The position numbers and the translations under genes were made by a program. A stretch of 55,422 nucleotides of DNA, counting the filler, from Bipalium vagum (lineage: Eukaryota), in NCBI GenBank assembly GCA_037834085.1. It is 3 parts of 3 records of this genome, joined end to end, with 100 filler letters (N's around TTAATTAATTAA, not from the genome) between each part and the next. Parts side by side here need not be neighbours in the genome. Positions count along the whole stretch, not along the records: positions 1 to 20,165 come from JBBMKC010258966.1; 2 more parts are not named here. One strand, 5' to 3'. Below the pieces are notes generated by a model. That model worked only from the letters and a program-made list of their open reading frames with translations. It had not been told where the DNA came from and ran no database searches. Shown piece by piece: positions 1,378 through 53,099 of the stretch; the first letter of the stretch is position 1, and each line of letters opens with the position of its first letter.

Positions 1378-4300
1378 TTAGATAAATCTCATAAGGTCAA
1401 TGAAAGAAATATCATTATTCACCTTCAAAGAATCCAATTGCTCTTCAAAAGTCTGATTTGGAGAAAATCTATAAGAAACTAATTCTTTATTGAAAATTTC
1501 CATCAAGTCATGAACAATAATCAAAAATATTTTTTCGATTTCATTTAATTTCTCATTTAATTCATGACAAGATCCCATAAGGTTATTGACAAGTTCAGAG
1601 GTCTTGTTAAGTTCCATTTCTGTTTCGAATGTCGTTGAATCCGTTACTCGTGTGTCTTCCAATAAATACAAATTCTCTAGAGATGAGAGATGATTCCTCT
1701 CTATTATTTTAATATTGAGAGACATTTGTATTCTCTATACATTTCAAATAAGATTTTTATAAAAAGTAAAAAATCCATACTTTTAGTTCCATTAAATTTT
1801 TCTGAACGAAAGATCTACTAATATTGGTTTCTGATATGAAATTTAATTTCTCTTTTAACGGTTCTAAAAATTGATCGATATTCTCAGGGATATTTAATAC
1901 TTGATTGTATGCTTTAGAAATTTTCAAAAAACCCCTCTTTAAATTTTCTATTAAATTTTTGATATTAATAGAACCATAAGTACTGTTTCTATAGTTACTA
2001 AATTTATTACTGAGATTAGAATCAATCATTTCCAATTGTATTTTAAGCTGTTTAATTCTTTCTATTAATTTATTTCCATTGTTAATGTGGCTAAAAAAGT
2101 TTTCTGCGGTCAATTCTTTAGACTGACTTAAATACTGTTCTAAGTCCCTCTTTGACACTGAATGCAGTACCATATCCTTCGAAGCGTCCAACCATGATTC
2201 ATAATCGGTCACCGTTTTGGATAAATCCAATTCCAGTGGATCTCGTAATGTATACATATTGGATATTTGGATTTCAAATTGGATTTCCAATTGACCATCA
2301 AATATTTCCAATGTTTTCCTGAAATCTACAACTTCTTTACAAACGAGCTCTTTCTCTATGTCAACTAAGTCTTCAATCAAATCCCAATTTGAAATTCTGA
2401 TAAAAATTACTTTATCCAATGCTAATTGGATTTGGGTGAAATCGTCTTCAAACCTACCTTGAGGCATCTTTCCATCATATTTTAAAAAGGAAAATTTCTT
2501 CTTAAGCTCACCAGACGTGTTTTGATTTGTGAGGATAATCTTCCAATTTCTTGACAAATTCTCCTTCCTCAAAATCATTTTCTTATGGGAAGCTGACATC
2601 AAAATCCTAAATTCATCATCAGTCAATACTTCGGGCTTAGTGATGGTCTTGTGGTAGTCAACTAAAGTGTCCAACATTCCAGATATTTGTGAAAAAGAAA
2701 GATTCCAACTTTCTCTATCAGTACATAACATATCAAACCTATTCAGTTTTTCCTCGCAATCATTAATATGGTTGCATATTGATTCAATTGCTCTTTCTTT
2801 ATTCATCATTGATGACTTCTTATTTTGGACAGTCTTTAACGCTAATTCCAGGTCCCTCTCGAATTCTTTTACACAAACTTTTTTCTGATGGTCTTCATTG
2901 AATTGTTCAATATATTTTTCAGAATTGGAGATGAAACCTAAAATATTAACCTTCAAGATTCTCAAGGTTTCTAGGTTTATTAGCAAAGATCTGTTATCAG
3001 AAATTTTTTCAATTTCTAAAGATCTAATTGCAACTTTTATAATAGGCTTATTTTGGATCAAAATTTCCAAAAAGTCGGAAATCAGCTGTTTGAGTGCTAA
3101 TTCGATACTCATTAAGTCTCCTTCCATATTCTCAACTGAGCCTTGCCACTTTGACAATTCTTCCTCTGAAATTTCATGCTGATTACTTTTTACTTGCTGA
3201 ATAATTTGTTTTAATGCTACTCTTGCAGACTCCAAGATTTCTTTTATGTGTATGAAGAGTATCGGTGACGTTTTAATTTGAAATATTTCTTGTAATTTAC
3301 TGATATCCGATCTTAAGTCTTCTATTCTCAACATCAACAGATCTCGTGGTAATGAAGTCATCGTTAAGTCGTCCAAATCGTAAAGCATTTGTTTTGGTTT
3401 CGTTATTGTGGTATCTATATGATCACAACAGTTGCCATCATTTAGCATATTTTTAAGGTTTTCTAATTTATCCAAATATTCCATTATATATTTCTGAATG
3501 GTTTTGAAATCATTAAGAGTTTTCAGTTTTATTAAATCTCCTTCTTTAAACCTATCGGTAAGATAGATTTCAGTTAGATCCTCAAAATCAAAGGTCTCTA
3601 ATATTTTCATTAGATCTATATCATTGCTTTCCATTTTTCTTTTTATTCTTTCATATTCAGTCATCATTTCATCATTGGTCCTGCCTTCTTGATATTTGTC
3701 AATTTCACCTGTTAATAGATCTAAAGAGTCTTTGATACAACCAAGATCATTTATCACATTCTTCAAAGTGTTCTCTTCAATTGTAAAGTTCTTTATGCTA
3801 TAAAAGACACTTTCGATTTCAATGATTTTCCATTCTACCTGATCTTCTTGCAATTGTTTCATTATATTGATAATCAATTGTTGATATTTTTCAACAAAAT
3901 CTTTTTTTGTCACACTTTGCAAAACTGCTTCTCGACATTTGATATCTACTACGACCTTATGCAATTCAAAACATTCCAGTCCATGGATATATGTTTCAAG
4001 TCTTTTGATCTTTTCAAATGGATCTTTCATAGGAATTATATCATTATATAAAAGTTGTTCAGCGGACTCAAGTCGATCTTTGAAAAGATCCAGTATAATT
4101 TGATTTTGTTCTAATTGTTTCCAGCATTGGATAATCTCCAGTTTTAAACATTTTAATTGATCAAAATTTATTTGGACATTTCTCAAAGCTTCGTAACGAT
4201 TTCCATGGATTTCCCACGTTTCATAGAAATCCACGATACACTGGGCTGCTTTATCGATTCTTGAACTGATCTCAATGTATGCCAAAAGGTTTTCAGTATT

Positions 4301-7300
4301 TCTCATTGCATTGTTCAGAAACTGAATATCAAATGTGGTCTTCTCTAAAATTTCTTTTGATCCTTGCAGTACTTTGTGGAAGGTGACTTTCTCCAAAATC
4401 ATGTCTATTGTTTTTGATAAAGTACGGATCCTGTCAAGTTCTTTTTCAATTAATTGATCAACTTCTAACTTTTCGCAACAAACCCATTGATCGTTTGTCC
4501 ATTTGGACAGTAATTTTTTCTCAGATTCTTTTATTTGAAGAGATAATTTCTTGAGATCATTAATTCCTTCCTCAGACATTTCCACAGGATCTTCATCATT
4601 CAATAATTCTTTCTCAGGAGTTTTAACAGTTGACTGGGAGTTGGATAAAATAGATTGTATCATCATTATATCAACTTTCAACTGGTTAACATCAATATAG
4701 AACCCTTCAACTCTACTCTCGAATTCTAAAATTCTTTTTTCAGATTCATTCAAGTTCCTTCTTAGAATCCTGTCATTTCCATTATGTTTCAGTGAATTTA
4801 TTTCTTGCTTGATTTCTTCTATCTTTTCTTCTATTATATCAATGGGTATCGAAGATTCTGAAGACGTACATAGGTCCATTAGCTTTCCTAAACGATTTTC
4901 AATCTTTTCAAGACTGGAATGAAAATTCGACTGAGAATCCTCCAGTTCTTCTTTATCTTCTTCTTGTCCCCAAATTTTAAAATTAAGAAATGAAATATTT
5001 TTCCGAAATTTACTAACCAAATTATTTCTCTCTTTATCAAGAATAGTGAGCTCTTGGAAATTATATGCATTTTCTATCTGGACCATATTAAGCTTCTGTT
5101 GTACGTTCAACAGGACTCGTCTTTTGATCAATAGATCATCGGACAATTTCCAATCATTATTGTTCAAATGGACATAGCATTCTTTAATCATTTCCTCATA
5201 GATTTTGTTGATTTCATCGATCATTTCACTTTTCTCCTTGATTGCTTGCAATATTGTATAGAGTTTTTTGTCTAGATCACTCTTCAATGAAGTCAACATA
5301 TTTACTTTTGATACACATGAAATGCCAATATCCTCATTCAGCTCTGAAACCTGAGCCATGATCTTTCCAATGGTTTTCAAATCGGTATTGGTTTCGTCCA
5401 ATATTTGGTGAAGTTCTCCCAGATGTAAAGAGTTTTTACTGTCTTTCATTCTTTCTAAGAAGATCTCCACATTTTTCATAGATCTATTGTGAATGTTTTC
5501 AAATAACATCACTTTGGCCTTTACATGATCTTCGATTTTCAGCAATTTCAGATTGGACTTGTTCGATTCCAACTCTTTTAATATTATTTTATTTTTCATA
5601 CAAGTTTCCAGCAGGTCGTGAACTTCACGAATATCTAACACGGTTTTGCACATCTGTCCATTGTGTTGGATCTCATTCAACTTGGTCATAATCTCATTTA
5701 TTTTGATCAAATCTTTATTTGTCAGTTCTAAGAAATAATTTTTTATGTAAGTTTGTTCAAACAATTCCATCTCTTCCACACATTTGACAAGGTTAGTCTT
5801 TTGTTCAAGAAACTGATGGACTGCATTGAAGATGGGTCGGATTACAGATTCCACCTTTTCATTACATTCATCGATTGTTTGGCAAATTTCACGTTTTTGT
5901 AAAGAATTAATGTTATCCTTGGCATATGGATCTGGTAGATTAAAACAATTCTGCTGAATTTCTGTGATCAATTGACGATATATCTTTATATCCTTCAATA
6001 ATTTATTTATCTCAATGATTGATGTTTCAGTTAATCGTACTCTGTTACTCAAGTCTTCACAAGCCTGAAGAACCTGTCCAACAAAGAAATCCAACTGCGA
6101 GGATAATTCCTTTGACCCTATCTTCAGGGTATCAATTGCTTCTCTGCAAACTTCTTCTGATCCTCCTTCAGAATTCATTGATTGGATAGTGGCATTTATT
6201 TTTTCATCTAACAACATTGCTCTAGTCTTCAGAGTTTTCATACTTTCCGAATCCGAAACTGAATTTCTCTCTAATATCACTTTTAGTTGATGTCTTAACT
6301 GATGAAGTTTATCTTTTGTCGCCATTGCTTCATTTCCTGAATAATTATCAAGGGAAACGTTTATGACCTTTTTCAGGTCACCATAGTCTAAGAATATGTC
6401 GTCTATTTTCCAGCTTTCTTCTTGGACATTTTTCATGATTTCATACTTTTTCACTATTTTATTGATAAGAAATCGGATATTTTCTACATCACATTGACAG
6501 TTGGAAGCAACTTCAGTATCTAATTCTTGGATTTTCTCCATTGTATTTTTCATAATTTCCAAACTGTTTCGAGCTTCGTCCAAGACTTTTTCGGTGTTTT
6601 GCACATGGGATTCTTTGAAATCGTCAGTAAATTCATTTAAGAAATTGTTCATTTCCAATGATGATTTTTCATGAATATTTTTGAAGATCTTCAAGGATTC
6701 ATGAATTCTTTCTTTATTTTCTGTTATCTTTAATTTCCGATCGGCCATACTTAAAACGATCTTCGTTAATCTATCTTTATTTTCAGTGGCCGTCAGACAA
6801 AGATCACTTATTTCTTGGACATTTAATACAATTTTGCACATATCCATACTTTCTCGGATATCCGTCAAGTTTACCATGATATTGTTAATCTCTTCTAATT
6901 TCTGATCAAATTCAATGTCATCCACCAACTCCTGTTCCAAAACATCAATTTTCGACGAAAGATTTTTAATGATTTTTTCATTAATTTGAAACTGTTTGAT
7001 GGCTTCATCAAGAGGGTTTTTAACGGTTTCAGCACATTTCAAGCACTCGTTGATCTTTCTACTCAAAGAGGATTGCATCTGAATAATTTGGTCATTGAAA
7101 ACTGGACTGACAATGTTTAGACTGTTCGATTGGATCTCGGAAATTTTATTAAGGTTTCTGTCTATGGATCCTATTAACAAGTTGATATTGACAATTGATG
7201 AGTGAGAATTTTTGACGATCTTTTCCAAATCCGAAAATAGATTATTGGAAATGGATTTCACTTCCCCAAAGTAGCTGATCAATTGGTTCTTCAGCTCATT

Positions 7301-10300
7301 AAACTTTCTTCGTTTCACTCTTTCTTTCTCCAGATCCACGTTAATGGGTTCCGTTTCTTTTTCTATTTTTCTTTGTAAAGCCAAGGCTTTTTCAACAACG
7401 CCGTCAATCTCTTCAAATTTTGGATATGTTTTATTATTAATTATTAACAAAATCTGTTTGTCCAATCTTAGAAAATTTCCCTTTCGTCTTTCTAATATCT
7501 CCATTAAATCAACGTCTGAATCTATTGGATTTTCATTCTCGAACTCTCCAACCAACTCATCAAACTTAGAGTTGATTTCATCCAATTTCTTGTGTCCTTC
7601 TTCAATAACCTTACCAATTTCTTCATATTTTCTATTCACTATTTCAATGAGAGAACTGACGTTTTCTATTTCCACCTTGAACGGTGAAACATCGTCTATG
7701 CTCATCTCGTTGGCACTTTCTAACGTAGTTTTCAATATCTCTAATTTCTCACCAGACTCGGTCAGGACCTGTTTGATTTTTTCTTCACTACACGTTGCCT
7801 TTTTACATTGGATCATATCCAGATATAGTTTCAAACTGGAGGAAGCCTCATCTGCAACCTTCATGAACTTTTCCTTAAAGTCTTTCCTTTGGTTTTCCAG
7901 TTCTTTCAGCTTTGATTGATAGTCGACCATTTCTGAATAAAGATTTTTCAACTTGTCTTTATTTTCTGTAATATTATTTTCCAGATGATGAACGTCTTGG
8001 ACATCAAACTTCTGATTATAAGCGATCATATTTTCCAAAAGCTTGTCTAACCTATTTTTTATATTATCAATTTCTATCAGCTCTTTATCGATGCCTACAA
8101 CGTCTTTCTTTTCATTGGAGTTTTTATTCAAACTGTCGATTTCTTTGGACAATTGTTCCAAGATTTCCTCATCTTTTTGAATTTGAATACAGAATTTATC
8201 AATGGGGTTTGCTGTCTTTTCTACAGATCTCAAACATTCAACAATTTGTTGAGATATAAAAATTTCAGTTTCAATAAATATATTTGGAAAAGAGGACTCT
8301 TCAAATTTTATTTCTCGAGAATGAATGATTCTCAATGACGAGACCCTTTCAACGATTAATGCCAGAACAAATTCAACATCCTTTATTGATTTCGACGGAG
8401 AAACAATTATATTTTCCAAGTCAGAGATGAGATTGTTTAATTGTGATATTATGAGTTCTACTTCTTTGTTTAAATCGACAATTTTTCTGTTTTTGTCAGT
8501 TAATTCGTTCAACAAGTTCAAAGAATCATTCAATGATCTGTGGAACAATTCTTCACCATTCTTTTCATTCTCTTTGGTCTTGATCAATTTTTGTAAACTT
8601 TCACTTATTAGTTTAATCGAAAATTTTATCAGCTCAGTTACTTTCAAGTGATCTGGGAGCTGTTCCTTATTTACTTCTTGGTCAGAATGAACAATATCAA
8701 GAAGGTCATTCTCCATGAATTTCTGATAATCTGTGATACCACAATATTTTAAAATTAAATCCAGAATATCTTGAGCTCTAGTTTTATTTTCGGAACTATC
8801 TTCAATAGGGTCAAGGTCTCTTGAGTGATGGAATAATTTGTGAATTTCTTTCGTTTCTTCATAGAATTCCAAAATCTTTAAATAATTATTAGTTATAACG
8901 TCTACATCATTACTGTTCCAAATATTTTTTTCAAACCAACTATTTTTTACCTGGGGGTCAGATATCGGTTCAATGTTTGGATCGTTACAATCTTCTGGAT
9001 TTTCTTTCAAGATTAAGAAATCTTCAATTATTTGTTTTTTATTTTGATATTTTCTGACCACTTGATCTAACTTCTCCTCCATTAAAGATTCAAATACCAT
9101 TTCGTTTTCTTCAAATCTTTTCTTAACATCCTCTAGTTTTCGACCCAGTAATGACAAATGTTCTGTAAATAATTTACTTAATTTATCTTGAACATCAAAT
9201 ATTTTATCACCTCCTAAAAACTCTACATCAATCTCATTCAGATTCTTTTCTACATCATCAATATTTACCTGGAGATCATCTGTTTCACTGATCAAATCCA
9301 GTTTTGTTTGTGAGGTGACCATCAGTTCCTTACAAAGTTGCAAAGCTTTGTCCAATTCATTGAGAGATACGTCGTGTATTTCTGAACTTTCAAAAGCTTC
9401 AAGGAGCTTTCTTGTTAACAATATCTCTTCATGAACAGTCTTTAGATTCTCACAATTCGACTGCAGCTTATGAACGAGTGATTCTGATGATTTGTCATTG
9501 ATTCTCAAAATATCTTCAGATATCTGTAAAGGAATGTTATCTAAGATTTCATTATGATTCTTAATTGTTCGTTGGACTTCATTAACAAGTAGAAAATCTA
9601 TGGAACGACAAAGTCCATCAATGAGTTGCTGAACTTCTTCTTGAAGTGGGTTCTTGAAATTTCCTAATAATGATAAAGCATCTGGATTTTGAAGCTTAAG
9701 AAATTTTTCAATCAGTTTGTCAAAGGTTCTCTTAATTTCCATCAATTCCTCTCTGTCTTTGATGTTGCTGTTATCCACTGACTTTTGCATACCTTCCAAA
9801 CCACATAAAACTTCATTTAAGCCTTCTGTTTGCTTAGCGTAATCTTCTTCTATCACACCCATCTGTAAATATATTTCATTCAAATTGGAGTAGTCTAATT
9901 CACGAAGACTTTCTGACAACTTTCCATTTTCAGACAAAAATTTCCCGTTTTTCACATTTCTTGAAAAGAAGAAGGCATTGTTCACATTCACAAAACATTC
10001 GAATTTCCATTTCTTTAGATCTTCCATATTTTGAATCCTGGAAATAAAGGGATTTTCACTATGAAGATCAGTTAAAAAGCTTTTCGTTGTCTCGTATTTG
10101 AAAAGCATTTCTGTCAGGGCCTTTTCGTTTCTTTTATGGTAATTAAAATCTTCTAAATTGCAATTCACAATAATAATTTGTTGCAGATCTTCGTTTATGA
10201 ATTCTAATGCCTCTTCTATTGCCTTACTACAACACATTTTATGGTCCAAGAGAATATCTTTTGCCATTGAAAAAGAATTTCTGTAATTATTCTCATCTAT

Positions 10301-13300
10301 AAATTGCAGGTTGCACTCAATATTTTCTATACAGGCTTCCATTATTTCTTTAATCGTTGTGGTTACTGCCTTACTCCCTTGTACATCAACACGATCAGAA
10401 TTTTTTTCCGATTCAGAAAAATGCTCATGTAAAGAATTCATGGACTGGGTATTTTGTCCATCAATAAAGTCTTCCACCTCTGTTTCTTCTGAAGAATCTC
10501 GACTTTTGTTCAAATCTTGTCGCTTACATAAACACGATGTGACAAGTAAATTATTTTGACGAAATAATTCCTCAGCCTCCATTTCCATCTTATCACATAC
10601 GGAATTAATACTTTCAATTGTTCCCATTAACATTTTTGCAACATTCACATCCTTGGATTCTATTTCTATATATTTGGCTTCAGCAAAAGTAGCAGTAGTT
10701 TTATGGAGAACTTTCATTTGTTCTACAATTCTTTCTTGCTGCTTCAATTCCATCAACAAATCGTCTTCCGACTTTAAATCCACCTCTTTTAAGCTCGTGA
10801 ATTGTGAATGTAAATCCATAACTGATTTCATGCTACTTGAGATTTCTTCTTTGTATTGAAGAGCTTGAGACACGTGGAGTCCTGCAAATCATAAAAATGA
10901 AATGAAATTAAAAATAACAACAACTGATATTATAAATGATCTGTGAAAGATTCTCAAGATAGTTCTTTGGTCACACTAAAATAATGACAGTCTTTTAATT
11001 CGCATTTCACTGTTTCAAAATATAAGAGAGAAATTTAAAAGAAATGTTTTTAAAATGAAATTTCTAAACAATTTTCGACAAGATGTTTTACTTAATGTTC
11101 GATTTAAATCATGAACTGAAATTAATTGAGTTAAAAAAGGACAAAAATCTTATAATTTATTGGTTTTAATAAATATCTACTGCTGCTGTTTATCTTCAAA
11201 TGTTTGATTTAATTCCAGTGAAAATCATTGGAGTAATATTGGCAATTTCCATACCATATATTTTGAGTCACGTGATATGAAAAATTCTGATAATTTATGA
11301 TAATTATGATAACACCCGGAAATCATACTAATCTAAACATATTCAGTACAGATGACAATTGATATACGGAAAATATAACAAACATCGAAGTTTAATCAAA
11401 TGTGAGTCTCTGAAATTATTTCGTTTTATTATTTTAATATGCATTGTTGCAGTAAAAATATTCTAGTCTCATAATGTTACAGAGGATTATTACTAGATCA
11501 CAATGAATCGTGGGTAAATTCTTATCTACTATAATAAGTATAAATTGTATTATTATTGGAGAAAAGTAGCTTCACAGTCCATTGGGATTCGAAACCCATT
11601 AAAATATCCATAAGTAAGTGGAGCCACTTTTAGAAAATATAAAAGAATCTTTAGACGATCTGTAATTTTTTGAGACGTAACAATCCCATATTTTTAAAAA
11701 ATATTTTAAAAAATATCTTTTCTACAGACATAGAAAGAGATTTGAAAGAGAAAAGTCGAGTTTTGTACAATGTTTAGCTAATTTTATTTTCTCATTATAT
11801 TATATTTTTAGTCACTGTTTTGAGCTAAATGATTTTCCAATCAGATTAATTAACTCAGGATAATTAGAAAAATAAATATTTAAATAAATAATTTTCTATA
11901 TCTACATAAAAGTGATAAACAAAACGAAACTTTAAATGCTGATCTTGTGATTTGTTTTACTCATTTTTGAGGTCTTATATAAAATGGTTGTATTTTTGAT
12001 AAAGTATACATTATTTCTTATTAAATTAATTTTCTAATATAAAATTATTCATTTTGAAATATTATTCTAATTATTTTTCTTCAATTTTATATTTTTTATA
12101 TAATTTTATAAAATTCTATATCTTTTGTATATAAATCTTTCAAGGCTAATATTTAGTAATCAAAATCCAAAATCACATTAAAATAGGTAGTGTTGCATAA
12201 GCGATATATGAATTTTAAGTGTCATATTTAAAGTTTTAGAAAAATGCAGAAAGAATAAATACATGCAGTAATTAAATATTTGAATATTAAAGGATTAAGT
12301 TGAATGGCAATATGCAACATTAAATGAATAATCACTCACATTAAAAACTGTTTAAAAGTGGGTTTTATGAATTTAGTTGTGGTGGTGTGAGCATTAAAGG
12401 TGCACCACAATCTGGTAGACCAAAAACAGCAACCGAAGAAATGGATACAAATATCCAAGAAATCGTGTTGACATACAGTAGATTAAAATTGATTCATATT
12501 GCTGAAACTACGAATATCTCAAAAGAACGTATTCACCACATTTTGCATGAAGAATTAGGTATGAGAAAGCTGTTTGCAAGATGGGTATCCCGTTTAATAA
12601 CACGTCTCCAAAGACAACGTTGTTTGGCAACTTCGGAGCAGTGCTTGCAGCTTATCATCCAGATTTCCTTTAACAATTTATTACTGTTCACTAAAGCTGG
12701 CTTCATCATTACATGTCGGATACAAAATTTTAATCTTTGCAATAGGCAGGAAAGGGTGAAACTACTTGATAAATTGATCCAGCATATTCTTGAGAAATGT
12801 CCAAATCTGTCGAGGAAAAAAATTTTTTACTTCATGATATTCGAAGTATCATGAAAAACATCACACATCTAGTTGGAAAAAATTAAAAATCTGCACTTTG
12901 AATTAGTTCCACACCCACCCTATTCTCCGGATCTGGCCCCGTCATATTTTCGAGACCTCGATAAATTGGCCTACAATAATGGCATAAAAAATTTTGAAAA
13001 AGTTTAATAAGGTGTATTCAACTTGTAAGAGACTACATTAAAAAATAATTTGTTTTTATCTTTTGATTTGATTTTTTTCATATTTATTCACTAAACTTTT
13101 CAACCTACCCTCCTAAATATTATAAAACTTTTTAAAAATATTTAATTAAATAAATAATGAAAACATATGAATCAAAAACATTCAAACTTTCACATAAAAA
13201 TTAAATTAATAGTACTTTAAAATAAAAAAAAATAGTATATTATATTAATGTACGAATATTTATAAAAATAAATTAACAAGTTTAAATATAATTTTAAATT

Positions 13301-26800: not shown

Positions 26801-28876
26801 AATATCTTGAATCTTAGATTAAAAGGAAGAGATTTAACTATTATTGAATATTAATATTATTGAATTTCAAGACAATCTTAGAGCATTCATAGCCAAACTG
26901 CAAAACTAGCGAAGTAAAATGGATACAGGAAACATGATAATGTTTGAAAAACTATCCAGTATAATAGAAGAAATTAAATGCGAAACCAATGTCCATTTAA
27001 AAAAAGAGATCACAAAACACCTTCAATCTTTTGAAAATGAGCTTGTGTATTATTTCCATGAGTTGAATAAGGAAGGAGCTTTACTAGTACGATATCCATT
27101 TTCTGATTCTATTGATATATCCAGTATTCCTGATGATGAGCAAAATGAATTTTTGGACTTTTGGAAAGATTCTGCGGCTCACCACTTATATGACGAAAAT
27201 CTGCTAACTCAGTTCTGGTGTGCTATGTATCACTCATATTCAAAAAGTCACAATAATTGCGTTTAGAATTTTACTTCCCTTTGCTTCAATAAATCTATGT
27301 GAGAGTGGATTTTCAACACTTCTGCATTGAAAACCAAAGCAAGAAACCGACTAAATGTTAATGCCGAATTGATGTTGGTATTAACACAAACGCAACCACG
27401 TATTTTAAAGCTAGTCAATGAGTTACAATATCCCCAGTCTCATTAAGATTTGGTGATTGAATAAATGTTTTGTTATTAATAATAAATTATTAGTAGAGTT
27501 AATTGTTATTGTATTTATATATAGTGGGGTCGCCAGTATTTGTTTGGTTCAAAAATGGGGTCGCCATACCAAAAAGGTTAGGAAACCCTGAATTATATGA
27601 TATTTTTGCTTAAAAATCAATTCAATATAAATTAGATATATCTGCAAACAAAATTTTTATTATCATTTAAAAAACAGCCGGAGTCATAGTTGTATACCTA
27701 ATATATTTATTTTTCCATCATTAACAATTGAATATTTTAATTAAAAAAATTTTTATGATCAATAAAATCAAATTTCTTTGTTTTACTAAAGACAAGGTGA
27801 ATCTATGGTATATCAGATCCACTGTCTAAAATTTCTGATATAAAAATAATATTTCTTCATAAATAATACTAAATCTACTTTATATATATATATATATATA
27901 TATAACTAATAAAAAATATATTAATAATCCCTAGGAAATGCTTTATTAATATCAAAGTTATGGTCAGAATTCCAATTAGATTAATTTTTCTAATTGTGAC
28001 TTCTCTGATTTCTCTTTATCAATTGTAAATTTTTATTTTTAAAATTAAAAAATGAGTTTTTTGAATATTTTTTTATTTGGAAAAAAATCATCCTTAAAAT
28101 TAAAAAAGAAAATTTTATAAAAAATATTTTAAAAATTTAAATTAAATTTTAATAATTAAACTTACTTTCTTAATTTTGAAATTTTGATTTAGGAATATAA
28201 TATTTTTATCATTTACTTTTTAAAAAATTGCAGAAAAATACCATAATTTAACTTATTTTACATTTTTTTGCTTAAATTTAAAATAAATCTTTCATACCAA
28301 TTAATTAAACCAAAGTACAAATTTTTAAAAATATAAAATTAATTAAAATAAAATTTAATTAGAAAAAATAAATAAAAATTGTAAGAATTCATTGAAGAAT
28401 AATTATATTAATTAATTATTAATATCAAATCACCAAATGAGTTTAATTAAAATGTGACTAAACAAAACGTACATATTTTGACACTTATTATTCATACCGT
28501 AATTCATATTTAAGTTATGCTGTGATAAAAATGATATTTTTTATGAAGAATTTTTAAATGGAGAAGCATCTCTTAATTTATTTAATTAGGAATTTGCTTA
28601 TAGACTAGTACAGCTTATCATCCGTCTTGCACATGTAAAATGGGTTCTTCTAATAACAATGATGTAGTCACGGATCCTCAATGTCGAGTGGTAGGTCTTG
28701 AAAATTTACGGGTAGTTGATGCCTCTATAATGCCAAGTATAATCAGCGGTAATACCAACGCTCCAACTATGATGATAGCAGAGAAAGCTGCTGATATGAT
28801 TCTAGGTCGTGACCCTTTGCCAATGATGAAAGATGTTCCAATTTACATACCAAAAAACATATCTAACGAGAACTAA
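20807..28876 (+). CDS. CHDH: Choline dehydrogenase-like GMC oxidoreductase, 5'-partial, 6 exons
   Basis: Exons 20807-21003, 21539-21730, 21782-21970, 24484-24702, 24751-25002, 28604-28876, all GT-AG and in phase. Motifs [80 protein letters not shown]-terminal GxGxxG exon(s) are absent from this contig. Confidence 0.92.
22072..23552 (+). mobile_element. Degenerate Tc1/Tc3-like element with imperfect TIRs, in a CHDH intron
   Basis: TA|CAGTGGGAGAAAAATT at the left end and AATTTTCTATCGCATTG|TA at the right end. Internal remnants SDEKKF, GGGSLM and [14 protein letters not shown]. Confidence 0.7.
23687..24412 (-). mobile_element. Internally deleted maT/DD37D-like (DUF4817-type) element with intact TIRs and TA target duplication
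   Basis: TA|CAGGGTCTTCCAAAAGAAGCTT...AAGCTTCTTTTGGAAGACCCTG|TA (22-bp perfect TIR). N-terminal [17 protein letters not shown] and C-terminal [17 protein letters not shown] are joined without the catalytic core. Confidence 0.9.
25100..25600 (-). mobile_element. Mos1-like mariner 5' half; its probable 5' TIR is displaced to ~27675-27701
   Basis: [42 protein letters not shown] resembles the Mos1 N-terminus, followed by FLHRIITGD. Confidence 0.8.
25620..27590 (+). mobile_element. hAT Buster-type (ZBED8/SCAND3-like) transposon, near full length, inactivated
   Basis: [47 protein letters not shown] and LCESGFSTL motifs with stops and frameshifts. Right TIR GGTTAGGAAACCCTG with two GGGGTCGCCA subterminal repeats, followed by AATTATAT (NNNTANNN). 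Left end decayed. Confidence 0.9.
27881..27904. repeat. (TA)n microsatellite
   Basis: About 12 TA units. Confidence 0.9.
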
Positions 28877-40749: not shown

Positions 40750-41280
40750 CAGTGAACCTCTTAAATCTCTTCCTAAATCTAAGTTGCACCAACGGAAGAG
40801 TTTAGTGGTGTTCCACTAACCTGGTCCATTATAAATTCTTGAAATTTGGTCAAAAAATTACTGCCGAAATGTATCAAAACCTGAAGTGCATCTTGTTCAA
40901 TAGAAAAGGACTATTGCTTCTTCATGATAACGCTAGAGCGCAATCTACCGTACAAAATTTGAATCAGTTTGATATTGAAATTCTGTCTCATGCAGTCTAC
41001 TCACCAAACGTTTCGACTACTGATTATTATTTCTTCAAACATTTTCAAAACTTTGCGAGAGTGCCTAGTACAATAATTATTCTGTCATTAAAACCATTGA
41101 CAATTTTGTAACATTTAGAACTCCTGATTTTTAATGAATCGGAATGAATAGGCTTCTGACTCATTGATAGAAATGTGTAAAGTTTAATGGTTTCTATTTT
41201 GATAAAAGAGATTTTGCTTAAGCTGTGATTTATTCATTTGCAGTTCAATGTTAAAAACCATCATTTATTTCTTCAAAAAC
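40750..41280 (+). mobile_element. Mariner 3' fragment
   Basis: PKSKLHQRK, NRKGLLLLHDNAR and HAVYSPNVSTTDYYFFKH motifs. Confidence 0.85.
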
Positions 41281-42079: not shown

Positions 42080-43150
42080 TATTTGGTTGTTCGGAAAGTA
42101 GTTGCGTTTTTTTGATAAAAAAGTCAAATTATTGTGGTATACATATATTTTAATCAATTACATATTGATCGTTCTGGTCCAACATACTTTGCCATCTTTG
42201 TGAGAGTTGCAGAATTCCACGTTCATAACAGGTTACATCTTTACTCACGAAAAACTGATCCAAGTGATTTTTCACCTCATTTGAACTGAAACTTTTACCA
42301 TCTAAAAAATTGTATAAGAACCGAAAGAGGTAATAATCAGAAGGTGCCAGATCTGGTGAGTATGGTGGATGTGGCAACATATCCCATCCAAACTATAACA
42401 GCTTCTAACGAATGTACAAACTTGTATGAGGTAGGACATTATCCTTCTGGAATATCACACGTTTTCTGTTATCTCAATTCTAACCTTCTTTACTTCATGG
42501 TTTGTTTCATGGTCCATTTGATTGCAGTACGCTATATAATCTATTGTAGTTTTGTTCGGTAGAAGATGAAAGTAAAGTATTCCTAAAAAATCACACAAAA
42601 CAGAGAGCATTATTTTCTTTTGATAAATATTGGCTTTGGGAGTACTTTGAACCGACTCACCTTCTGTACGCCATGGTCGTTTCCGTTTTACAATGTTGTA
42701 TAAAATCTATTTCTCGTTGCTGGTTACTAGGCGGTACAAAAAAAATCATTTTTGACGTTGCAGAAGCAATTCACAAATGTCAATCCGACACACCAAATCT
42801 CGTTCTTTAAGAAATTGAGGTACCCATGTATCCTGCTTTGAAACAAGACCAACCCTTTTCAAATGATTATGAACTGTTTAATTTGATAAATTTAATGTTG
42901 TAGCAATCTCTCGTGTCGTAATTTGTCTTTTTTCTTCTACCAATGCCATTATTTTACCTTCATTAGCCTCGAGTGGTCTGACACTAAGTTGTGCATCTTC
43001 AATATTGAAATTACCGGAACGATATTTTTGAAACTAGTATTGGCATTGGCAAATTTAGAGAACATCATCTTCATAAATTTCTATCATTATTTTCCTTGCT
43101 TCATTTGCCTCTTTAAATTTTCGGAAATAATAAAGTAATATATATGACAT
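42080..43150 (-). mobile_element. Degenerate near-full-length mariner (DD34D)
   Basis: LPHPPYSPDLAPSDYYLFR intact, TWVPQ upstream, and TIR-like TTGGTTGTTCGGAAAGT at ~42082. Confidence 0.9.
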
Positions 43151-50104: not shown

Positions 50105-51255
50105 AAATTTTTCACTTTGTATTAGAGGTAATCGAACTTAATCATGAAATTAAAGCAGAGTAATTTAACCTCTTTTGAAAACAATTTTTAACAGAACTCA
50201 TCATAAGTTTTATGTAGTATCTATTTTATATATATTATAAATTCCTTACCTGTCTTTTACCACCTAATTATTAATTAAATTAATTATTATTAGTAATTAT
50301 TAAATAAATTAAGAAAAAATGAATTATCTGTTATTCTTTTTAGTAGAAATATTATTTCCATTTCTGAAAATAATTATTTTAATTAAAGATAACTATCAGG
50401 GTTTTCATAGGCAGAATTCTTAAAATTCTCTAAAATATTAAAACACTATAAAACAAAGAATAATCAACGAATAGGAAGCAAATTTTCATTTTACAATAAC
50501 TAAAAACAAACAAAATTTGATATAAAATTCGTTTATGATTTTAGAACAATAGACAAAATAAAAATTAGAGAAAAGTCAAAGAAATTGTAAATTTTGTTTT
50601 CTGTTTTAAAACTATTTTATATTAAATATGAAATGAATTATTTTTAGATAAACACAACTAAAAAAATAAAGTAATTAACTTCTTCAGAAATTTAAAAATA
50701 TTTATAAATTATTATAAAACGTTAGTTTTTGTAATATTTAATTTAAATATTTTTAAAAATAAAATTATAAAATATTAAAAATGTTACACATGACATTCCT
50801 TATCCCAAAAATAATATCTTTCGTTTATTTTCCAGATGTATTAAATTAATCATTTTTGCGAGCCATCATAATTGAATTAACAAATGAAATTTACTAAAAT
50901 TATTAAAAATTTATTTCAAATAAACATGTACATGAGAATGAAAAAAATTTTAATTGATAAATTAGAAAATTTTTTTGATTTCAGAGATATTATTAACCTG
51001 AATAAAATATAGGCGCAACTAATTCTTCGCACTTTAAGGCAATCATAAACAAATTTCAAAATATAAAGATTTCGAGAGTTAAATTATCAAACTGAAAACA
51101 ATTTTTATTAAAAGGATCAAAGGTCCTTTTTATATAACCAATGTAAACAAAGACTAATTTTCGGATTCTCTTATCAGACAGGGGTAATAATAATGACTTA
51201 TAACAATAAAATCCATAGTTAAATTTTCCATTAAAAAAAATGAAAAAAGCCGTAC

Positions 51256-51876
51256 TTGATCATCGTGCGTACTTTTCAAAGGGCTCCGACAAAACGTTAA
51301 AGAACTTTTCGGTTCGTATTCTGGCAACGAAGTTGGATCAGGAAGCTTGAAATGTTTTCGATCACAATGAGGTCCGGAATTTGATCTGATTCGAAATGTA
51401 CCATCAAATAATTTATCCTTCGTCATTTTATCACTGGCAACATTTCCAGTTTTGCTTTGTCTTTTCAGTTTAATGTAATCGGGTATATTGCTTGTTAAAT
51501 CATTGTGATTACATTGATTACCAGTGAGCTCTTTCTTCTGGAGAATAGTGAACAATTGTGGGTTACAGAATTCGTTATATTTTGACGATTTTGGTGGAGG
51601 ACATTCTAGGCAACGGTTTTGCAATTGGGAATAAAGCATTTTTGCCATTGGTTTTTGGAAAACATTTGGCGTTATTGTTAACGACTCAGATTTCGGTCTT
51701 TGTTTACCGATGTTTTGTATGTTTTTGAACAAATTCCCTCGTCTTGTTTGGGTACTTTCCGATAATTGATTGATGAGTTTTTTGTCTTCGGTTTTCAAAT
51801 TTGTGTTTATATTTACATTCTTTAAATTAAGTTCCGATGGTTTTGGGATTTTGGAATTACCGTCCTTATTTGACAT
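51256..51876 (-). CDS. First coding exon (207 aa, low-complexity K/N/S/P-rich); possibly the N-terminus of the long AMPK-gamma isoform
   Basis: Acceptor ttgttcgcAG|ATG, 621-nt open frame, donor CAA|GTacgg. A GTAAGT donor at 52087 could supply a 5'UTR exon. Linkage to AMPK-gamma rests only on strand and position. Confidence 0.65.
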
Positions 51877-53099
51877 CTGCGAACAATAGAGTAAAACAAA
51901 TTGTTTATTTATTTGACATTAATATAAACTCGGTAATTCAATAACTTTGAAATTAAAATATTAAATCCAAAAAAAAGTTAAATTTTCACATAAGATTTGG
52001 CAAAATCACTCTTACGAAATTATAATATGAAATTATTTTACATTTAATTTGCAAAAATTCTCAATTATTTATAGAAAAACAACTTACTTTGACTATATAA
52101 TTTCCTATAAAATCAATAATTTTTAAAATATAAATTTTATAAGATGAAATTAGAATTAGCCAATCAAAGATTGTCTACAATTCTTTTTCTATGTCATTCA
52201 AAAATAGGTTACTGACTTATTTTCTTCTCTTCAAATTATTATTATATAGAGTATTTGGATGGTTTTTCATGTCTCATTTTTTCGAAACCAAAAGTTTGTA
52301 AAATAATGCTTTTAACAACAAGAGAATGTAATATTTGTCTGGTTGAAAAATCTTTAAATTGACAGTATCTAGTTTATTAAGTAATTTTATTTTCATTTGT
52401 TTTATAAAATTTATAAATTAAATTATTATTAATTATTAACATTTCAATTATATAGTGTATTATTTAAAATTGTGTATTTATGCAATTAAAGTGCTTTTTA
52501 TGTTCACTGATATTTTTTGATTGAAATATAGCTCTAATCAGTATGAAAAACTATGTAAATTTAATATGTACGCTATTTGAGATAAAAGTTCTACGTCTTC
52601 TTAGTCAAGCTTAAATAAATTTTAGTGTAGCATATTTAATTATAAAATTATATATAACTATTTAAATATAATTGTATAAAATCTTTCTAAAGGTTTTCAA
52701 AAAGTTAATAATGAGAAATTAGCAATAATTTGTCTATTTATGAGATTTTAATGATATTAATGAGTTAAAGTTGGGAAATTAAAATTTATTGATATTCACT
52801 CATTTGTCAATAATGTGTTCCTAAATAATTAAATGAAAACAATCACAATAAAACTTATTTCGTCAGCACACGGTACACAAATGAATTTCCGATAAAATTT
52901 TGGAAAATAAATGAACAAATCGATCCCAATTCGTAAAAATGTCCCCCAACAATCAATAAATATAAAATGAATATATTGTCGGGTATACCCAAAACACATA
53001 CCCGTCCCAAATGAAAATTGTAAAATTGTGCTCAAAATAATAAGAATAATAATAATAATATTTGTGAAATTGTGCAAAAAATAACAAAAATAATAGCAA

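Follow-up and report, generated by a model that had tools for sequence, protein, structure and literature searches.

Among the described systems closest to the repeat reported here are giant nesprins. According to the available parts of PMC8139857, ANC-1 of C. elegans, the nesprin-1/2 ortholog, contains six tandem repeats of 903 amino acids (aa) with nearly 100% DNA identity and predicted spectrin-like bundles, and the available parts of PMC11230431 describe, for isoform PE of Drosophila Msp300, lineage-restricted repeats (a 108-aa unit present ∼20 times and a 101-aa unit present 19 times) with homology only in close relatives. Repeat regions mostly expand by several domains at once, in mid-region and in many cases within one large exon, and nebulin has a seven-domain duplication unit (Bjorklund et al. 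2006, PMC1553488, in the sections available). Here we describe a giant exon in a 55,422-nucleotide (nt) window of the genome of Bipalium vagum (GCA_037834085.1); the window is made of three joined stretches, and the exon lies in the first, which is the entire contig C258966 (20,165 nt). The exon carries three tandem units of ∼394 aa with a mutual protein identity of ∼26%, and on balance we consider it probable that these are old tandem copies of a four-bundle, spectrin-type block, forming part of the rod of a giant tether protein that is likely nesprin-like (of the Msp300/ANC-1 type).

That the tandem duplication is real seems to us virtually certain. Among the 1,480 offsets compared (20–1499), the best 40-residue ungapped diagonals of the exon protein fall at 396, 397, 394, and 392, with the fifth at 788. 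A preliminary description of this DNA had proposed three super-repeats on the basis of anchor motifs, and the glutamate codons of these anchors (8239, 7048, and 5869; motif starts 8245, 7054, and 5875) are spaced exactly as it stated, by 397 and 393 codons; the nine motif blocks that it quoted were all found in a single stop-free minus-strand frame. The range it gave was 4900–8450; the repeat spans ∼4946–8491, slightly wider at the 5′ end of the gene. When the three units are aligned with one another, the Smith-Waterman scores are 346, 285, and 191, whereas controls (60 shuffles each by 10-residue windows, 7-residue blocks, and 21-residue blocks, plus reversal) peak at 143 and the remaining 18 of 21 tile pairs score 41–124; the self-alignment at an offset of ∼395 aa thus stands clear of shuffled sequence. 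Neighbouring units are 28% identical over 318–383 columns and units 1 and 3 are 21% identical. With unit 2 as the query, a phmmer search of the whole genome (like all genome-wide searches here, this covered a 441-Mb assembly split into 272,664 contigs) recovered unit 3 at an expect value (E) of 1.0e-22 and unit 1 at 2.1e-20. A default BLASTP comparison of the exon protein with itself gave zero off-diagonal matches, and the best DNA match between units was only 28 nt long (E 0.07); the duplication must therefore be old, and the repeat statistics together with the lost DNA similarity back the earlier proposal of an old, intra-exonic tandem duplication. The copy number in the giant exon is exactly three, as a profile built from five units (these three and two from the paralog described below) found no further copy in either giant exon, the best other score being 2.7 bits. 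A degenerate fourth unit upstream, with a tile score of 124 against a shuffle maximum of 120, found no support in the five-unit profile.

A second gene carries the same repeat. The phmmer search also returned (E 7e-28) a giant frame of 2,672 codons on contig C83438 that is collinear with the whole giant exon (BLASTP identities of 27% and 26% across alignments of 1,425 and 1,865 columns, respectively), with both exon ends in the same splice phases. Within the repeat region, the alignment diagonal shifts from ∼+35 to ∼−360, and because this jump amounts to one unit, the paralog has two units (A and B) rather than three, at the same period. Its exon, at 7,919 nt by calculation, is 1,182 nt (394 codons) shorter, an exact one-unit match that is partly chance, as smaller indels cancel. 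Between the paralogs, the repeat region scores 440–445 against 254–325 for the flanks, and the five units share 12 invariant positions, including Asp29-Leu30 and a proline, Pro101, that falls within the first long helix. Among 19 and a further 12 candidates scored in the genome, there was no third gene carrying the repeat region. Counterparts of the neighbouring small exons were found on the short contigs C232870 (1.6 kb) and C218491 (2.4 kb), and walking between the paralogs toward the gene ends led only to these two. The paralog contig also contains a second large exon downstream (L007:2848-3960), a 371-codon frame with a faint Spectrin_Anc-1 match (E 0.61), and no counterpart of this exon was found elsewhere in the genome.

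In a tree of the five unit sequences, computed without an outgroup, units 1 and 3 each pair with one paralog unit (Table 1) and unit 2 is unpaired; because both paralogs share two units in this manner, at least two units predate the gene duplication. When whole-unit topologies were compared, unit 2 as sister to unit 3 was rejected (AU test, approximately unbiased; p 0.004) and unit 2 as sister to unit 1 was not (p 0.057). Over the first 105 columns the best tree groups units 2 and 3, though not significantly, and the remaining columns reject this grouping (p 0.003). One could envision that such a split signal reflects a hybrid middle unit generated by unequal crossing-over, but a paralog that has lost one unit would account for it equally well, and the trees do not decide between gain here and loss in the paralog.

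The fold of one unit was modelled with AlphaFold2 from the five aligned units (mean predicted local distance difference test score, pLDDT, 85; 82–85 among five models). The model has nine helices (residues 2–34, 41–65, 74–129, 136–163, 167–228, 236–265, 267–321, 327–353, and 357–393) with a period of ∼98 aa, in which short helices of 25–33 residues alternate with long ones of 55–62. This layout, in which helix A is followed by a short B and then by a long helix that serves as both helix C of its bundle and helix A of the following one, the series occurring four times, is by prediction the chained three-helix-bundle arrangement of the spectrin-repeat fold; of the three to four helical bundles per unit envisioned in the preliminary description, the model has four. 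When the model was compared with a structural library of 48,161 chains, 8 of the 10 top rows were spectrin-repeat chains, including alpha- and beta-spectrin. Leading these were plectin repeats 7–9 (Z 13.4, 289 residues aligned, root-mean-square deviation [rmsd] 7.3) and a four-repeat desmoplakin chain (Z 13.4, 351 aligned, rmsd 9.7); nesprin-2G matched with Z 12.1 over 192 residues. In a second comparison, the four-repeat rod of alpha-actinin aligned over 364–365 residues (Z 12.3–12.6, rmsd 13.8–13.9); taking both comparisons together, the leading spectrin-repeat chains aligned over 285–365 residues. A search of the PDB by sequence gave no match under E 0.01. For the C-terminal 2,038 aa, language-model features placed spectrin/plakin clusters foremost at 0.83, which is a lead only, and the lookup of a single unit (best 0.75) was uninformative.

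Several observations weigh against assigning this fold. The predicted template modelling score (pTM) of the unit model is only 0.59, on the basis of five sequences, and the all-helical model of the C-terminal flank is of low confidence, reaching pLDDT 42 only. Z values near 13 are common for helical bundles, as the tool itself warns, Z 12–13 is borderline for helical folds, and single bundles of unrelated proteins score level with the leading matches (CorA, Z 13.3; BAG, Z 13.2), although these cover only ∼90 residues. Foldseek returned nothing for the unit model at E ≤ 0.001, and Pfam yielded zero families above cut-off in the whole exon, the units, or the paralog; the best match to Pfam Spectrin (PF00435) was that of unit 1 (E 2.7, 9 bits against a cut-off of 29.9), with no spectrin match in the paralog units. 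Nor did the four ∼98-aa bundles resemble one another in sequence, as 0 of 6 pairs exceeded controls by more than 0.1 score units; this lack of a detectable mutual relation implies that the individual repeats arose long before the block was duplicated. Weighing these points, we nonetheless hold with good confidence that the unit consists of spectrin-type bundles, which, on the model and the structural matches, are most likely four repeats of the spectrin type that have diverged strongly and form one block. The suggestion that this might be an unannotated repeat family thus survives in that no database family matches the unit, but probably not in the sense of a new kind of repeat domain.

As to the gene, a nesprin-like tether fits best because of the giant exon, the diverged rod that is invisible to Pfam, and the Trp-bearing helical repeats in adjoining exons, and we lean toward a nesprin over another spectrin-repeat giant. 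Canonical spectrin rods are easily seen in this genome (135 PF00435 matches), and neither the giant exons nor their neighbouring exons are among them. The domain searches lent this no support. In the genome-wide search for KASH (PF10541), the C-terminal transmembrane domain of nesprins, 0 of 14 candidates were above cut-off and the five best were unlike KASH on inspection, in a gene that runs off its contig and a fragmented assembly, where an intron can split the motif. Nesprins also carry paired CH domains at the N terminus; none of the 81 CH matches in the genome lies on C258966, C83438, C232870, or C218491, contigs that do not include the 5′ end of the gene, and Spectrin_SYNE1 gave nothing above cut-off in the genome. 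With no KASH, SYNE1, or CH support, it is from the architecture that we take the family name. Searches for homologs were also blank: a three-unit profile had 0 matches at E ≤ 0.001 among 1.84 billion representatives, the five-unit profile 0 of 7,987 scored proteins of 693–2,000 aa, the whole exon 0 of 7,537 proteins of 1,667–5,305 aa, and a two-sequence profile of one upstream exon 0 of 984 proteins of 152–2,000 aa, the last three size ranges ending at 2,000 or 5,305 aa and thus short of the giant nesprins. These blanks are weak evidence, since proteins above 5,305 aa were out of reach in three of the searches. Literature searches listed no publication dealing with this repeat or with the nesprin rod of any flatworm, and the part of PMC3646009 that was available held no passage on duplication.

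Other explanations can be envisioned. The similarity among units could stem from biased composition or heptad pattern, or from faulty assembly, as the protein is enriched in E, K, L, I, and N and reveals no self-repeat to default BLASTP. However, shuffling by heptad or 21-residue block yields scores far below those of the units, as do the flanks of the exon itself, there is no between-unit DNA similarity to mislead an assembler, and the paralog shows the same pattern. In addition, one public contig spans the repeat region at flat depth and with no differences, although it is probably the source of the assembly and so is not independent. No RNA data set carrying the sequence was listed, which is evidence neither for nor against its expression. 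The control scores, the units without DNA similarity, and the spanning contig exclude composition and misassembly as causes, and with the genome-wide E-values and the paralog they refute this explanation, for which we see practically no room. Alternatively, the same block could belong to another spectrin-repeat giant, such as a dystrophin/utrophin-like protein, a rod specific to this lineage and devoid of KASH, or a spectraplakin (Shot/MACF1), in which a plakin domain, EF hands, and a GAR domain surround the rod. Plakin-domain and spectrin chains, rather than nesprin, head the structural comparison, the language-model leads include PLEC and dystrophin-like clusters, and no KASH candidate passed cut-off in the genome. 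Yet structural rank is unable to separate spectrin-repeat families, and PF00435 readily finds the spectrin-family rods of this genome while missing both giant exons and their neighbours. Extreme divergence together with a giant exon is, moreover, typical of nesprins. For ANC-1, this combination is described in the available parts of PMC8139857. We regard another giant as unlikely, though it is the most probable of the alternatives.

A different possibility is that selection maintains the four-bundle block as a functional super-repeat, a ruler or a module for periodic binding like those of nebulin or titin, whose copy number tunes the paralogs to different jobs. All five units retain the four-bundle period and the 12 invariant positions, and the repeat region is conserved between paralogs at least as well as the flanks. 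On the other hand, identity is only 24–30%, the invariant positions are mostly hydrophobic, as a bundle core would predict, there are only two or three copies, and duplication of several domains together is usual without special function (PMC1553488, in the sections available); we give this possibility little credence. It is similarly improbable, in our estimation, that a lineage-specific nesprin family with a fixed ∼20-nm module and its own conserved binding face uses two versus three copies to set tether length.

If, as we prefer, the units are tandem copies of a spectrin-type block in a nesprin-like rod, in-frame unequal crossing-over inside the exon would first have produced two units, before the gene duplication, and a later unequal crossing-over would have gained or lost one. 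Each event would have involved a whole number of bundles, keeping frame and rod intact, and hence would have been tolerated. A spectrin repeat is ∼5 nm long. The rod may thus act as a passive elastic spacer between whatever its two ends bind, at ∼20 nm per unit, and with one unit more or less, the paralogs would differ by ∼20 nm in this exon. Gain or loss of blocks looks like an ordinary route of length change in such rods. The repeat sequence is real and unannotated and the kind of event has already been published; new is the paralog pair, which differs by two versus three units in an otherwise collinear giant exon and so offers a clear example from nature in which the length of a giant cytoskeletal rod differs by one four-repeat block. 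Because the single repeats are beyond the reach of Pfam, the super-repeat alone is visible, and the five-unit profile can serve to locate and annotate this rod in related genomes, in which the standard tools draw a blank. If the number of units were fixed and functional, the pair would allow a test of tether length per se in nesprin-like proteins, and the functional block would be to spectrin repeats what the rulers of nebulin and titin are to their own repeats.

Table 1. Features of the giant-exon locus (positions along the window; aa numbered in the exon frame)
Feature	Position	Strand	Basis or remark
Giant coding exon, 9,101 nt	1781..10881	-	Stop-free frame, splice-like ends, paralog with same ends and phases, one flat-depth contig across
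Repeat unit 1, aa 800-1191	7316..8491	-	Tree partner is paralog unit A (bootstrap 91)
Repeat unit 2, aa 1192-1585	6134..7315	-	No clear paralog partner
Repeat unit 3, aa 1586-1980	4949..6133	-	Tree partner is paralog unit B (bootstrap 100)
Four modelled three-helix bundles of unit 2	7315-7019, 7018-6725, 6724-6431, 6430-6134 (approx.)	-	AlphaFold2
N-terminal flank of exon, ~800 aa, outside repeat, collinear with paralog	8492..10881	-	Alignment scores
C-terminal flank of exon, 1,056 aa, predicted all-helical (low confidence)	1781..4948	-	pLDDT 42
Probable next exon, phase 0, open frame directly after AG	1381..1734	-	Inferred from splice signals; 3′ end provisional
Upstream cluster of small exons (probable, about four) coding for spectrin-type helical repeats that contain Trp	14750..15802	-	Splicing to giant exon inferred

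The exon occupies most of a minus-strand stop-free frame of 3,043 codons running from 10888 to 1760, with an acceptor at its start (TTTGCAG/GA, 10881, phase 1) and a donor at its end (AAA/GTATGG, 1781, phase 0). Its N-terminal flank aligns with the five units at scores of 62–117 as compared to 254 with the paralog flank, and its C-terminal flank is 25% identical to that of the paralog. An intron of 46 nt separates the giant exon from the probable next exon, which starts at 1734. The introns in the upstream cluster of small exons are 45–55 nt; this cluster has a weak Pfam Spectrin_7 match under cut-off (E 0.038) and a counterpart on C232870 with 40% identity.

Decayed remnants of Tc1/mariner transposases are scattered over the window (12345-12851, 14044-14394, 17524-18021, 23805-24218, 40806-41108, and 42153-42706), of which that at 17524-18021 matches DDE_3 (E 2.4e-7) and the others were judged by translation; those at 12–14 kb sit within the intron that lies upstream of the giant exon. 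On the plus strand at 19196-20165 is a myotubularin-like sequence with GRAM-like and phosphatase Pfam pieces in a single frame, no evident introns, and three in-frame stops (TAG, TAA, and TGA); its active-site stretch, FGEDGWDRT, lacks the catalytic Cys of this motif. Judged by these features it is probably a pseudogene or retrocopy, and it may be either intronic to the giant gene or placed head-to-head with that gene. Elsewhere in the window are exons of a choline-dehydrogenase-like GMC oxidoreductase (20758-28873, plus strand; Pfam GMC_oxred_C, E 9.5e-9) and a 254-codon open frame (51157-51918, minus strand) that has no Pfam match and resembles a low-complexity first exon. In the rest of the genome, each of five contigs (C37201, C140563, C220209, C267989, and C183864) combines a CH domain with a canonical spectrin-repeat frame of ∼1,000 codons, making up an expanded beta-spectrin-like family that, taken with the paralog pair, hints at widespread old gene duplication in this genome.

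Compared with the systems described at the outset, the locus resembles ANC-1 in having large tandem super-repeats in a giant helical rod that is not recognised as spectrin by sequence but is predicted to form spectrin-like bundles. The analogy with ANC-1 drawn in the preliminary description holds for this outcome only: as far as the available parts of the ANC-1 report go, its 903-aa copies are near-identical in DNA and so homogenised, in contrast to three copies of 394 aa here that are ∼26% identical in protein, and ANC-1 has CH and KASH ends, none of which could be linked to the gene described here. In sequence, no relation to ANC-1 was seen beyond the faint Spectrin_Anc-1 match on the downstream paralog exon. 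Like the Msp300-PE repeats, ours appear to be lineage-restricted, with no homolog found outside this genome in the searches above; according to the parts of that report available, the Msp300-PE units are single modules of ∼100 aa, highly similar and acidic, whereas the unit here is an old four-bundle block. With the spectrin-type rods of desmoplakin (3R6N), plectin (5J1I), alpha-actinin (1HCI/7A8T), and nesprin-2G (6XF1) the modelled unit shares chained bundles of ∼100 aa in which helix C runs into the next helix A, but it differs from them in a sequence identity of 6–12%, in having no Pfam spectrin match above cut-off, and in an rmsd of 7–14 Å over three or four repeats. Finally, as in the cases presented in the available sections of Bjorklund et al. 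2006, several domains were duplicated together, in the central part of the repeat region and inside one large exon; unlike those cases, the single domains have here diverged too far to be detected by sequence, and only the four-domain block is visible.

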